This document shows, piece by piece, positions 54,912 through 60,750 of a stretch of DNA of 64,000 nucleotides (positions are counted from its first letter, which is position 1; each line of letters opens with the position of its first letter). The translations under genes and the position numbers were made by a program. Source of the stretch: Filifactoraceae bacterium (lineage in GTDB: Bacteria; Bacillota; Clostridia; Peptostreptococcales; Filifactoraceae); NCBI GenBank assembly GCA_041853585.1, contig JBGZSM010000069.1:867-64866 (forward strand). The letters are read 5' to 3'. The notes under the pieces were generated by a model, which was not told where the DNA came from, did not search any database, and saw only the letters and a list, made by a program, of their open reading frames with translations.

Positions 54912-55538
54912 CTATCTTTCGTTAAGTCGAATGGAGAATGTTTTTTCCGCCACCTCAAACGCTTTCTCAACCGGAAGGCAATAAGTGTTTTCCTTATCCT
55001 CCTCCGCAATACCGTTATAATACTCTTCCATGTGTTTCTTTGAACCAAAGAAATTCATGATATTTCAACAATTTGCCGCCCAATTTTCTACTTTTGATAA
55101 ATCAACATGGATGGCACATAATGAGTGTGGCTGATACTCCGTCAATTCCCCATTGCAAATTGAAACTTGGATTTTCTCGCCGGAAACGGGACATACCGAC
55201 TCAATATTGATATCCTGATTGAATACAAATGCCGAACCCATCGCATCAATTGCGCACATTGAATAGAATTCTCTTCCGTCCTTAAGCTTTACATGATGAC
55301 TGGTCGGTAAATTGGACACCGGATATGCAAATAGAATCTCTTCGCCGTCCGTTACAATAGTTTCCTTCTCTATCAGGCTATCGATGATACTGCGATTATC
55401 TCCGCAAAATTTTTCCTCCGTAAGCGGTTTTCGTTTCTCAATCATCGCATTGAGCAATTCGATGCGAAGCTTACTTTCTTTTTCATCTAATTTCGCATCA
55501 ATGTTAATGACCTTTTCTAAATCAATTTTCGTATTCAC
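54912..55538 (-). CDS. MerB-like organometal lyase, candidate selenoprotein (in-frame UGA at 55065-55067, C-U motif)
   Basis: FYSMCAIDAMG aligns with MerB YAWCALDTL (Cys/Asp). The track ORF stops at ...WAANC-TGA, but the same frame continues for 50 codons: NIMNFFGSKKHMEEYY...PVEKAFEVAEK. That matches MerB CC-HVHFFAS...VHEAFGLGQ. GTG start at 55538 overlaps the ATPase stop. Confidence 0.75.
55035..55053 (-). promoter_or_regulatory. SECIS-like hairpin for the MerB-like UGA
   Basis: Minus strand: tttcttt-GGTTC-aaagaaa, starting 11 nt after the TGA. Confidence 0.6.
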
Positions 55539-56290
55539 ACAATTACTCCCTTTTCTGAAATTTTTTGAACCAGTTTCATGCAATAGTCCTTATATTGCTC
55601 ACAGTAGCGATTGCGTGGTCTCGGAAGATTATTTTCCAATTCATATACAATCTTTCCTGCATTCGTTGACATCAAAATAACTTTATCACTCAAATATACT
55701 GCCTCATCCACATCGTGCGTTACCATGAGTGCGGTAATCTTTTCTTCACGCCAAATATTTTCAATCTCCATCTGGAGCGATTGGCGCATCATCAAATCCA
55801 ATGCTCCAAGCGGTTCATCCATCAATAAAACCTTCGGCTTACTTGCCAAAGCTCGAACCAAAGCCGTTCTCTGTTTCATTCCACCTGATATCTGATGAGA
55901 ATATAATTCTTCATGTCCTTTTAATTTAGAAATCTCCAACAGATATTCCAGCCTTTGCCGTTGTTCATTATCCGGAATCTTCATTTGTTTCATCGGGAAC
56001 AAAATATTGTCTTTGACCGTCATCCAAGGGAACAACGCATAGTTCTGGAATACAAATGCTCTATCGGGATTCGGACCATTTATTATGTCGCCATCCAATT
56101 TCACCATTCCCGAATCGCTTTTTTCAAATCCGGCAATTATTGAAAGCATTGTTGTTTTTCCACATCCGGATGGACCGAGTAATGTTACAAACTGCCCCTC
56201 TTCTAAAGTGAATGAAATATTTTCCAGCACTTTCTTATGTTTGTTTTGATTTTTAAATGTCTTTGATATATTATTTACTTCCAGTTTCAT
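55535..56290 (-). CDS. ABC transporter ATP-binding protein (nitrate/sulfonate/taurine NitT-type)
   Basis: GPSGCGKTT, ISGGMKQR and LLMDEPLGALD motifs. The ATG at 56290 forms an ATGA overlap with the permease stop. Confidence 0.85.
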   Translation of the reverse strand: MKLEVNNISKTFKNQNKHKKVLENISFTLEEGQFVTLLGPSGCGKTTMLSIIAGFEKSDSGMVKLDGDIINGPNPDRAFVFQNYALFPWMTVKDNILFPMKQMKIPDNEQRQRLEYLLEISKLKGHEELYSHQISGGMKQRTALVRALASKPKVLLMDEPLGALDLMMRQSLQMEIENIWREEKITALMVTHDVDEAVYLSDKVILMSTNAGKIVYELENNLPRPRNRYCEQYKDYCMKLVQKISEKGVIV

Positions 56291-57054
56291 GATACAAATC
56301 TCCACTTGGTAAGATATCTATTTGTTATTTGTAAAAGAATATCAATCGCATATCCTATAATAGCTGACATAAACATCAGCGCAATCAGCACATCGGTTTG
56401 CATCATCGATTGTGCTTCCACCATTGAGTAGCCCAGACCGGCACTTGTCGCTATGAACTCCGCTCAGATTACTGACATCCATCCGCTGCCGATTGCCAAT
56501 CTCGCTCCTACTAGAATATCCGGTAACGCTCCGGGTATCACCACATTCCAAAAAATGCTCCATTTCCCGGCGCCCATACTTTTAGCTGCATTATAATAGT
56601 CTTTGGAAATATTTGATACCCCTTGATTCGTATTCAATATTACTTGGAACAGACCATTGATTGCAATCATGAAAAGAGTTGGTCCATCTCCAATTCCCAA
56701 CCAGATAATTGTAAGAGGAACCCATGCCATCATCGGAATTTGACGAAGAGAATTCATCAGGCCACCAAAAACATAATTAAATTTTTTTGATAAGCCCATT
56801 CCGATTCCTAAAGGGATACCGATGATAAGTGCAATTAACCATCCTTTCAATACGCGTACCATAGTAATTCCAACATTGGTCATAATTTTTAAATCAAAGA
56901 TACTTTGAAAAAATGCTTTTGCCGTTGCATACGGCGTCGGTAAAAGTAATGGAATGGCGATTCTTTTTGCCGCAATGTACCATCCAAGCAACAAAATGCA
57001 GTAAAAAGCTAATTTCAAAATAGCATCTTTATAGTTGATTTTTAGATTCTGCAT
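56287..57054 (-). CDS. ABC transporter permease (SsuC/TauC type) interrupted by an in-frame TGA at 56464-56466; Sec-recoded or a pseudogene
   Basis: ...AIGSGWMSVI-TGA-AEFIATSAGLGYSMVEAQSMMQTDVLIALMFMSAIIGYAIDILLQITNRYLTKWRFVS, all in one frame. The gene ends in an ATGA overlap with the ATPase start. Confidence 0.6.
56427..56445 (-). promoter_or_regulatory. SECIS-like hairpin for the permease UGA (weaker)
   Basis: Minus strand: agtgcc-GGTCTG-ggc(t)act, starting 18 nt after the TGA. It overlaps the conserved AGLGY codons, so it may be coincidental. Confidence 0.35.
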
Positions 57055-58922: not shown

Positions 58923-59396
58923 CTAACAACAATTGTCCATATCCTCACTAAACAAATCTCGAACTGTCATATCCGCTTGCATGCGATAAATGGCATATCC
59001 GTAATTTCCATCTTTCGAGCCTGATATTATAAATTCGATAGGCTCTTTTTCATCAATGTTTTTAAACTGAATATCTACATTCTCTCTTGGGGCTAAAAAC
59101 TTTTCCGTCGCTTGATATTGTGTATTATCTTTATTGAGCAGTACTACCGCATAATTTTTTTCTTCTTCTTGAGGATGGTATATGACCAACAAATCTTTTT
59201 TCCCGTCATCATTCACATCTTCACTTTTTGCCATCAGCAAATCATAATTTTTATTTGTTTCTAAAAAATGAATGAGGTAAGGATGGTCTTTTTCTCCAAA
59301 ATCATTATTTTCCTGAATGGATTTGTTTCGACTATAAAGCTGAAAGCCTACCACAAAAATGACGAAAACTGCAATAATTTTTTTCAGTTCTTTCAT
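58923..59396 (-). CDS. Membrane-anchored protein with an FG-GAP-like DxDxDG motif and a C-terminal Cys-Cys
   Basis: N-terminal transmembrane segment, DVNDDGKKDLLV, and a C-terminus ending ...DMDNCC-TAG. ATGA overlap with the upstream permease gene. Confidence 0.5.
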   Translation of the reverse strand: MKELKKIIAVFVIFVVGFQLYSRNKSIQENNDFGEKDHPYLIHFLETNKNYDLLMAKSEDVNDDGKKDLLVIYHPQEEEKNYAVVLLNKDNTQYQATEKFLAPRENVDIQFKNIDEKEPIEFIISGSKDGNYGYAIYRMQADMTVRDLFSEDMDNCC

Positions 59397-60478
59397 TGCA
59401 ATCTCCTTTTCTCTATATAACTCATGATTCTATGATACATTGCCAGCGCAAAGAATATCAGAATAACGGATGAAGCTGCATAACGAAATCCCGTCGGGAA
59501 AATAACTATCAACCGATTGGCACTTTGAATTGAATAGTCGATTGTATCAATACTTATCTGCGGTTTATAACTCGGCATCAAAATTAAATTCGTAATATAG
59601 CCTAGAACAACAGCCATCGCCGTAACAACTCCACCGTAAATGATTGCCGATCGCTTCCCTATCATTCGATAAATACTGATTAGTTCCGCGATATTGGTAG
59701 ATGCGCCCGCAATCAAAAAAGTTACTGCAGAACCCGGTGACGCTCCCGCTGCAATCAGGGCAGCAATAAACGGAATATGACCGACCGCACAAACATACAT
59801 TACCGTTGCCAATATCGCTACATTTAATAATGACAATGCACTTGGATTTCCTAAATATTTCTGAATTACGGATGATGGAAAAGTTACCATAATGAATCCG
59901 GCTACAAACATCCCTGTAACAACATATTTACTTATTACTAAAGCAAAATCGTTCACCATCCAAACAAATCCCGATTTTATTTTTTCAGGTATGCTTCTAG
60001 TATCCATCCGCTCACTCATCTCGATATTTTGAGAATAAGCCTGTGGATAATACAATTCTTTTCCGGCGGTGCTGTTTGCAATCCATCCAATCATCATCGG
60101 AAAAATTAAACCAATTACAAAATATATTGCGGTCAGTTCTTTCCCAAATAATCCGTACGACAAAATCAGCGCAATCGGATTGATAACCGGCGTGGATGTC
60201 ATAAAACAAAGTACCGGACCGATATAAGCGCCGGAATAATACATACTGATTCCCAACGGAACGGTTCCGCAACTGCAAATAGGCAAGACAAATCCCGACA
60301 GTGTAACTTTCATCAAAGCTGAAAAACTCTTATTCCCCAAATGATGATGCAGCTTTTCGACAGGAATTAAATCATGCAGAATCGCTGCGATGAGGTAGCT
60401 GATTACAATCCAAGAAGACGCGGTGTTCAATAAATTAAAAGAAACGCGAAGAATATTCCAAAGATACTCTCTCATCAT
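59393..60478 (-). CDS. ArsP-like / DUF318-type permease
   Basis: Polytopic protein with two homologous halves and an LPICSCGTVPLG motif in the first half, typical of this permease family. ATGA overlap with the thioredoxin-like gene. Confidence 0.65.
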   Translation of the reverse strand: MMREYLWNILRVSFNLLNTASSWIVISYLIAAILHDLIPVEKLHHHLGNKSFSALMKVTLSGFVLPICSCGTVPLGISMYYSGAYIGPVLCFMTSTPVINPIALILSYGLFGKELTAIYFVIGLIFPMMIGWIANSTAGKELYYPQAYSQNIEMSERMDTRSIPEKIKSGFVWMVNDFALVISKYVVTGMFVAGFIMVTFPSSVIQKYLGNPSALSLLNVAILATVMYVCAVGHIPFIAALIAAGASPGSAVTFLIAGASTNIAELISIYRMIGKRSAIIYGGVVTAMAVVLGYITNLILMPSYKPQISIDTIDYSIQSANRLIVIFPTGFRYAASSVILIFFALAMYHRIMSYIEKRRLQ

Positions 60479-60750
60479 CCATCTCCTCCTTCATTCAATT
60501 TTGAAACGGCGTCATCAATAGCTCGGTCAATCATCATTTTGTTGGGATTTTTAATAAATATTTTTTCATCAATTATCAAAGTTCCAACATAAATCATGCC
60601 ATACTTTTTTATGTATTCCATATCCCTTCCTGCATAATACAATTTTAAATCAATTTTTTCTTTGTATCTGGCTGCTGAAGATTGAACCAATCTTCCAATC
60701 GAATCACAGGATGGTCATGTATTCACAAATTCCACTTTTACTTTTTTCAT
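60475..60750 (-). CDS. Small thioredoxin-fold protein (redox-active disulfide protein 2 / Thioredoxin_3 type), candidate selenoprotein with UxxC (UGA at 60715-60717)
   Basis: RBS aagagga precedes the ATG at 60750. Translation: MKKVKVEFVNT-TGA-PSCDSIGRLVQ...KYGMIYVGTLIIDEKIF. The track ORF 60475-60690 is the same frame downstream. The UPSC sits exactly where this family carries CxxC. Confidence 0.7.
60677..60695 (-). promoter_or_regulatory. SECIS-like hairpin for the thioredoxin-like UGA
   Basis: Minus strand: gaagatt-GGTTC-aatcttc (perfect stem), starting 19 nt after the TGA. The loop is identical to that of the MerB-like hairpin. Confidence 0.6.

Follow-up and report, generated by a model that had tools for sequence, protein, structure and literature searches.

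The selenocysteine-assisted organometallic (SAO) system was described by Haft & Gwadz (bioRxiv 10.1101/2022.07.06.499078) in C. difficile and about 50 other anaerobes; the journal version, as cited in PMC13188914, is J Bacteriol 2023, 205:e0025922. In C. difficile, the genes are arranged in the order saoDTECXBPAL and encode four selenoproteins, and the described set comprises a MerB-like selenoprotein with a Cys-selenocysteine (CU) dipeptide, a binding protein and a permease that both contain selenocysteine (Sec, U), a protein ending in Cys-Cys-COOH (CC-COOH), a thioredoxin-like protein with a UxxC or CxUC motif, and an ArsP-like efflux pump (Haft & Gwadz). The same preprint links both saoD and genes for double-cubane enzymes to SAO; saoD, however, is given there as not universal, and double-cubane genes lie adjacent to the SAO genes in only ~40% of genomes. 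A 2026 review includes the Sao families among known prokaryotic selenoproteins and still gives their function as 'predicted' (PMC13188914). Here we describe an eight-gene operon, saoTECXBPAL, in a 64,000-nucleotide (nt) stretch of contig JBGZSM010000069.1 from a Filifactoraceae bacterium (assembly GCA_041853585.1), hereafter the window, and compare it with the published system and with the more distantly related transport and resistance systems.

We conclude that this operon is a typical chromosomal copy of the known SAO system, with Sec decoding and the published model of function, and assign to this reading as a whole a probability of about 0.85; the identity as an SAO operon taken together with Sec coding appears close to certain. 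The eight genes are contiguous and tightly packed on the minus strand, from position 60750 down to 54912 (Table 1). Their junctions, in the order from saoT to saoL, are ATGA (-4), ATGA (-4), an 8-nt gap between saoC and saoX, a 17-nt overlap between saoX and saoB, TAATG (-1) between saoB and saoP, ATGA (-4), and GTGA (-4) between saoA and saoL. Both the gene coordinates and the overlap junctions agree with a preliminary description of the locus, which had presented it as a coupled operon of eight minus-strand genes. Consensus scans of the operon for promoters and terminators returned site counts not above those in shuffled sequence, and one 'terminator' match is a hairpin within saoB (see below) read from the opposite strand.

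Family membership was evaluated with the NCBIfam equivalog models NF040727-NF040736, by comparing each score with the curated cut-off (in bits). All eight proteins pass their named Sao models: SaoT (NF040730, 107.5 vs. 65), SaoE (NF040736, 459 vs. 325), SaoC (NF040734, 159.8 vs. 80), SaoX (NF040735, 485 vs. 300), SaoB (NF040727, 195 vs. 140), SaoP (NF040733, 368.5 vs. 295), SaoA (NF040729, 397.6 vs. 360), and SaoL (NF040728, 164.8 vs. 140). The Pfam domains Thioredoxin_3 and ArsP_1 also match SaoT and SaoE, respectively, and an NCBI protein from a Peptostreptococcaceae bacterium, already named SaoX, matches the window SaoX at 100% identity; Sao names are thus in use at NCBI for proteins of this lineage. 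The preliminary description had left it open whether curated collections name this system, and the answer is that they do; the novelty that it implied for the system was not borne out. The SAO system already has a published description, names and annotation, and the window copy is real but not new.

The gene order was compared across 80 related loci, taken from one-genome-per-species contigs and gathered via alignment of SaoX homologs. The order TECXBPAL is the commonest among them, C. difficile included, and the suggested synteny with other species extends to most of the 80 loci. In comparison with the C. difficile system, the window copy has the same eight families in the same order, the same four selenoproteins with Sec at the same positions (UxxC, C-U, gate U and C-U), the same CC-COOH end of SaoC, CC motifs of SaoX and Cys-Ser-Cys (CSC) motif of SaoE, and likewise housekeeping flanks; all the signature Cys/Sec motifs are thus present, namely CU in SaoL and SaoB, the gate U in SaoP, UxxC in SaoT, CC-COOH in SaoC, CC in SaoX, and CSC in SaoE. 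The identity of the Sao proteins to those of C. difficile is 37-60% (46% for SaoT); the host is a Peptostreptococcaceae-like Firmicute, and C. difficile nominally belongs to that family. The window copy differs from the published system in having neither saoD nor a double-cubane gene in the 64 kb, and, trivially, in the SaoT motif, which is UPSC where the listed motif is UPTC. Few operons described are as dense in selenoproteins as that of SAO, and the SAO transporter holds the only reported Sec-containing subunits of ATP-binding cassette (ABC) transporters.

In the mechanism proposed for these proteins, the surface proteins SaoX (CC motifs), SaoB (C-U and a further Cys) and SaoC (Cys-Cys-COOH) would use thiolates and selenolates to ligate an organometal(loid) compound at its soft metal or metalloid centre, and the SaoP2-SaoA2 ABC importer would take up the compound via a gate that is lined by a pair of Sec197 side chains. 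The cytosolic MerB-like SaoL (Cys94, Asp97 and Sec158) would then cleave the carbon-metal bond, SaoT with its UxxC motif would handle the metal or restore the thiol/selenol state, and the ArsP/SO_0444-like SaoE would export the released metal. This scheme is encoded in the curated names themselves, such as 'MerB-like organometallic lyase SaoL' and 'efflux transporter SaoE'. The functional guess made from the window (import dependent on a substrate-binding protein, a MerB-like carbon-metal lyase, an ArsP-family permease, and vicinal Cys/Sec residues suited to a soft metal) matches the published hypothesis near-verbatim, and that hypothesis is itself bioinformatic. Taken on its own, the import/lyase/efflux model for SAO is a tentative proposal that we would place slightly short of even odds.

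SaoX carries Cys54 and CC pairs at 197-198 and 227-228; across 21 homologs, four of its Cys residues do not vary, namely the lipobox C21 along with C54, C198 and C228. SaoC, as read from the sequence, ends in ...DNCC, and it is not a selenoprotein in the window copy. In SaoE, the conserved Cys-Ser-Cys motif is LPICSCG. SaoE shares this motif and the membrane permease family (ArsP_1) with ArsP and the SO_0444 Cu-Zn efflux permeases; in contrast to SO_0444, it belongs to a separate clade found only with the SAO importer, and it does not pass the SO_0444 model (168 vs. a cut-off of 300). A clue to the mechanism comes from aligning SaoL with MerB2 (5c17), in which the first catalytic Cys corresponds to C94 and the second to U158. 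D97 follows C94 at a distance of three residues, the spacing of Cys96 and Asp99 in MerB, and is matched by Ser in MerB2. The published structural superposition of C. difficile SaoL on MerB gives the same catalytic correspondence (Haft & Gwadz).

The resemblance of SaoL to MerB raises the alternative that the locus is a classical mer-type operon for resistance to mercury and organomercurials, in which uptake is followed by MerB cleavage for detoxification. SaoL belongs to the MerB fold family (PF03243; 3F0P, 5C17), passes the broad Pfam MerB domain (99.6 vs. 27) and conserves the catalytic Cys/Asp/Cys triad as C94/D97/U158, and it is accompanied by Cys/Sec-rich binding proteins and, by homology, a metal efflux pump. 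However, it falls below the cut-offs of both MerB equivalogs (65.3 vs. 193 for NF009710 and 57.5 vs. 200 for NF033555), it has Sec in place of the second catalytic Cys, and on reading the open reading frames (ORFs) of the window no MerA, MerR, MerT or MerP was found, so that the mer operon context is lacking. The operon is flanked by the housekeeping genes for RlmH, leucyl aminopeptidase (PepA), a PepO-like peptidase and a family 4 glycosyltransferase (GT4), and no mobility genes, whether transposase or plasmid genes, were found in these flanks. Other SAO hosts likewise have housekeeping flanks, and the high conservation within species and the dependence on selenium suit a resistance function poorly (Haft & Gwadz). 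Housekeeping flanks devoid of mobility genes fit the published view that SAO serves metabolism rather than resistance. Mer-type resistance is therefore rejected on the failed MerB cut-offs, the lack of other mer genes in the window and the housekeeping flanks, and we regard it as distinctly unlikely.

Still less likely is that the operon encodes an ordinary importer of the NitT/TauT type for sulfonates, taurine or nitrate, with the remaining genes as mere neighbours and the Cys/Sec residues serving redox regulation. SaoX, SaoP and SaoA are indeed most similar to the SsuA, TauC and NrtCD families, and share with the NitT/TauT importers (SsuABC, TauABC, NrtBCD/CmpBCD) the sequence family and the architecture of binding protein, permease and ATPase. 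Nevertheless, these proteins score far below the SsuA/TauC/NrtCD cut-offs and above the Sao-specific ones, all eight genes co-occur in an order conserved across distant taxa, and six of the eight proteins bear CC or CU motifs. The sao system also differs in having two binding proteins per permease, with Cys/Sec clusters in the binding pockets. A further difference lies in the permease: among solved NitT/TauT-type permeases, CmpB (9u9z) and NrtB (8w9m) are the closest to SaoP, and U197 of SaoP aligns with Ala in both, at a position that is occupied by Sec or Cys in SaoP proteins and is a gating position in the published model (Haft & Gwadz). A plain sulfonate importer is thus rejected on the family cut-offs, the conserved eight-gene order, the CC/CU motifs and the Sec site of SaoP.

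The SAO operon of the window is obscured in ORF calls, since the caller breaks four of its eight genes (saoT, saoB, saoP and saoL) at TGA codons; in an annotation, the fragments should be merged under these four names. The in-frame TGAs and their peptide contexts (Table 1) are exactly as first described, and the proposal that they align with Cys in other species, as Cys/Sec pairs, could be followed through the 80 loci, where the sites were mapped by tblastn. At the SaoT U12 site, 30 of 73 loci have TGA, 42 have TGT/TGC and one has CTT, the single non-Cys sense codon at any of the four sites. The corresponding counts of TGA, Cys codons and other codons are 45, 32 and 0 for SaoB U71, 61, 13 and 0 for SaoP U197, and 49, 2 (both TGC) and 0 for SaoL U158. 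In addition, many SaoT orthologs with Cys at the U12 site have Sec two residues further on (CAUC/CPUC). As had been stated, family-appropriate sequence follows each TGA. Frame and homology continue in the orthologs at all four sites, with homology directly past the codon in 29/29 loci for SaoT, 44/44 for SaoB, 60/60 for SaoP and 37/48 for SaoL; these are TGA-bearing loci, counted without one near-identical second assembly. The curated NCBIfam profiles likewise run across the TGA in SaoT (residues 2-83), SaoB (8-252) and SaoP (7-253), and Pfam MerB aligns to residues 75-201 of SaoL, U158 included.

Each of the four TGAs is followed by a candidate Sec insertion sequence (SECIS) hairpin. Folding bore out the G-loop hairpins that the preliminary description had placed 19, 9, 18 and 11 nt past the TGAs of saoT, saoB, saoP and saoL, with a weaker stem in saoP than in the other three. 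The saoT hairpin can alternatively be folded with 7 bp and the loop GGUUC, and the saoL hairpin carries an outer CAUG/CAUG stem at 55029-55059. A perfect G-loop hairpin of at least 7 bp starting 8-20 nt downstream was found for 2.85% of the 2628 TGA triplets on both strands of the window and for three of the four in-frame sao TGAs (calculated P ~1e-4), which is far beyond chance.

Conservation of the hairpins was assessed by position-specific pairing counts, since the minimum free energies of TGA and Cys orthologs are confounded by a difference in GC content. For saoP, the pairing amounts to 95% of cells over 57 distinct TGA orthologs (53 of them with at most one unpaired position), as against 66% in 12 Cys orthologs (one of the 12 with at most one unpaired position), although the two groups encode a nearly identical peptide, (U/C)AEFIATSAG.G; in two loci (L026 and L011), the saoP stems are wholly different yet complementary. 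Pairing of the saoB hairpin is 77% in TGA orthologs vs. 53% in Cys orthologs, and some clades have a shifted alternative hairpin. In saoL, almost every TGA ortholog has a hairpin at 11-12 nt; pairing reaches 88.5% of cells, and 41 of 46 orthologs show no more than one unpaired position. The position of the saoT hairpin is lineage-specific: the offset of 19 nt is common only to Johnsonella ignava, in which an A-U pair is replaced by C-G in a compensatory manner, and in other lineages a hairpin lies ~9-10 nt past the UGA. The sao hairpins thus behave like SECIS elements in that they appear to be conserved, to covary in part and to occur specifically in orthologs with TGA, most strongly so for SaoP and SaoB. 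Judged from these comparisons of sequence, the prediction that saoT, saoB, saoP and saoL are selenoprotein genes, in which SECIS hairpins downstream assist the decoding of UGA as Sec, is strongly supported.

Alternatively, the four TGAs could be nonsense mutations or sequencing errors in a decaying cluster of pseudogenes, a highly improbable reading. It would agree with the splitting of half of the genes by mechanical ORF calling and with the fact that no Sec machinery was seen within the window. Yet the same four sites are TGA in 30-61 other genomes and otherwise Cys codons with the one exception given above, homology and curated profiles extend past all four sites, and the conserved hairpins are specific to TGA-bearing orthologs. 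Moreover, the second assembly, contig JAUNKE010000041.1 (L001) of a metagenome-assembled genome (MAG) named 'Peptostreptococcaceae bacterium', is 99.35% identical to the window over 49979-62520 and keeps all four TGAs, which excludes sequencing error. The pseudogene and error readings are effectively refuted by the conserved TGA/Cys sites, the hairpins and the second assembly; the preliminary description had likewise argued against random nonsense mutations, from four such coincidences in one operon. Genome-wide reassignment of UGA to Trp or Gly (codes 4 and 25), which would also account for read-through in several genes of one operon, has a negligible chance of being correct and is rejected, because TGA is the normal stop of 12 of the 52 confidently delimited window genes, saoT, saoE, saoP and saoA among them, the homologs have Cys rather than Trp or Gly at these sites, and in-frame TGAs were found at these four sites only. 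A scan of the whole window for TGA read-through gave 54 candidates, a noisy set mostly in antisense or non-coding frames, and no other convincing split gene was seen in the 64 kb.

A number of points weigh against the assignment of the operon to SAO with Sec decoding and the published function. The substrate, the direction of transport and the lyase activity rest on homology and motifs, and no experiment was found in the searchable literature. The saoL stem is of low complexity, and shifted controls also pair at 56-76%, so that its count alone is weak evidence; in the window sequence, the saoP hairpin is weak (6 bp and a bulge), and folding of this sequence by itself yields a different structure as the energy minimum, although the hairpin is, whatever its energy rank, the structure conserved across orthologs. 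A scan of the window against Rfam at gathering thresholds matched no family, SECIS included, and selA, selB, selD and tRNA-Sec were not found in the window (ARAGORN for the tRNA, which gave no tRNA of any kind, and reading of the translations for the sel ORFs). These Rfam and tRNA results say nothing either way about Sec decoding. Nor was saoD found in the window by tblastn with C. difficile SaoD (best E = 1.3); in the flanks that were fetched (at most 10 kb on each side), it is present in 41 of the 80 loci and was not found in 39, and since saoD is also non-universal in the published system, its lack does not exclude the window copy from SAO. Finally, tblastn with a C. sporogenes query confirmed as NF040772 gave no match to a double-cubane reductase gene anywhere in the 64 kb; such a gene lies near the SAO operon in 29 of the 80 loci, in line with the published fraction.

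The closest operons are those of a Filifactoraceae MAG (L003) and of Johnsonella ignava from the Lachnospirales (L002), with 75-83% protein identity; SaoC is an exception, with 54% identity between the window and Johnsonella ignava. Of the flanking genes of the window, 12 were tested, and none of these was found up to 10 kb away from the sao operon of Johnsonella. High identity in combination with unrelated flanks hints that the operon may have been exchanged laterally. As a further step, the eight-gene form, which lacks saoD and, over 55 kb, any double-cubane gene, might represent a 'minimal core' of SAO spread by horizontal exchange, a suggestion that we consider rather unlikely. If true, the published statements on the absence of signs of recent SAO transfer would need to be qualified, and the system would seem able to function with neither SaoD nor an adjacent double-cubane enzyme. 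In any case, the window copy adds another locus with neither saoD nor an adjacent double-cubane gene, and may help to define the SAO core.

Table 1. Genes, in-frame TGA codons and candidate SECIS hairpins of the sao operon in the window
Feature	Position	Strand	Remarks
saoT, thioredoxin-like selenoprotein	60475..60750	-	91 aa; U12 in UPSC (UxxC)
saoE, ArsP/SO_0444-related efflux permease (predicted)	59393..60478	-	361 aa; no Sec
saoC, N-terminally anchored protein	58923..59396	-	157 aa; TAG stop; Cys-Cys-COOH end
saoX, 'extra' substrate-binding lipoprotein	57802..58914	-	370 aa
saoB, substrate-binding selenoprotein	57054..57818	-	254 aa; C70-U71 dipeptide and C90
saoP, ABC permease selenoprotein	56287..57054	-	255 aa; U197 in WMSVI-U-AEF
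saoA, ABC ATPase	55535..56290	-	251 aa; no Sec
saoL, MerB-like lyase selenoprotein	54912..55538	-	208 aa; GTG start; C94, D97, C157-U158
saoT in-frame TGA	60717-60715	-	context T-U-P-S-C
saoB in-frame TGA	57608-57606	-	context RDC-U-AKTAQWAL
saoP in-frame TGA	56466-56464	-	context SVI-U-AEFIATSAGLGY
saoL in-frame TGA	55067-55065	-	context ANC-U-NIMNFFGS
saoT candidate SECIS hairpin	60677..60695	-	GAAGAUUG-GUU-CAAUCUUC, 8 bp, starts 19 nt past UGA
saoB candidate SECIS hairpin	57579..57596	-	GCUCAAU-GGGC-AUUGAGC, 7 bp, starts 9 nt past UGA
saoP candidate SECIS hairpin	56427..56445	-	AGU-GCC / GGUCUG / GGC-U-ACU, 6 bp and bulged U, 18 nt past UGA
saoL candidate SECIS hairpin	55035..55053	-	UUUCUUUG-GUU-CAAAGAAA, 8 bp, starts 11 nt past UGA

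Some further observations concern the surroundings of the operon. Between saoL and rlmH lies a very acidic, low-complexity ORF of 130-160 amino acids (54377-54859, minus strand) that has no Pfam or NCBIfam match and whose conservation is limited to the near-identical MAG contig (L001); a promoter-like site with 10/12 matches is located between saoL and this ORF, such scans being no better than on shuffled sequence. Downstream of the operon, at a distance of 1 kb, is the GT4 glycosyltransferase gene (52643-53935), and homologs of it with 41% identity also occur within 10 kb of SAO in two Pelotomaculum loci (L055 and L074), which may be a coincidence. The MAG contig JAUNKE010000041.1 stops aligning with the window at 49979, although it runs for at least 2 kb more, and this strain-level breakpoint is situated beside a sigma-factor gene (49222-49980).

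Elsewhere in the window, the stretch 38336-39722 comprises ~1.4 kb free of long ORFs upstream of a metA-like gene and gave no riboswitch or other Rfam match; a 107-aa ORF within it (39238-39561) looks, by reading, like an N-terminal fragment of aspartate kinase. A chimeric ORF at 1422-2042 (plus strand) contains a sigma-54 interaction (AAA+) domain that breaks off at profile position 109 of 168, where it runs directly into the end of a hydantoinase-like Amidohydro_1 domain, represented by its last ~50 profile positions. A PAS-domain ORF (972-1379, plus strand) lies directly upstream, and the chimera has the appearance of a deletion, a scar left by rearrangement or an assembly error. The minus-strand region 2758-11867 contains four paralogous genes for B12-binding radical S-adenosylmethionine (SAM) proteins (2758-4137, 4080-5453, 6078-7508 and 8355-9800), together with genes for a SAM methyltransferase, a metallophosphoesterase, a GNAT-like protein and one unassigned protein; of the radical SAM genes, two were compared with NCBIfam, and neither comes close to any cut-off, the best match being HpnR (181 vs. 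650 bits).

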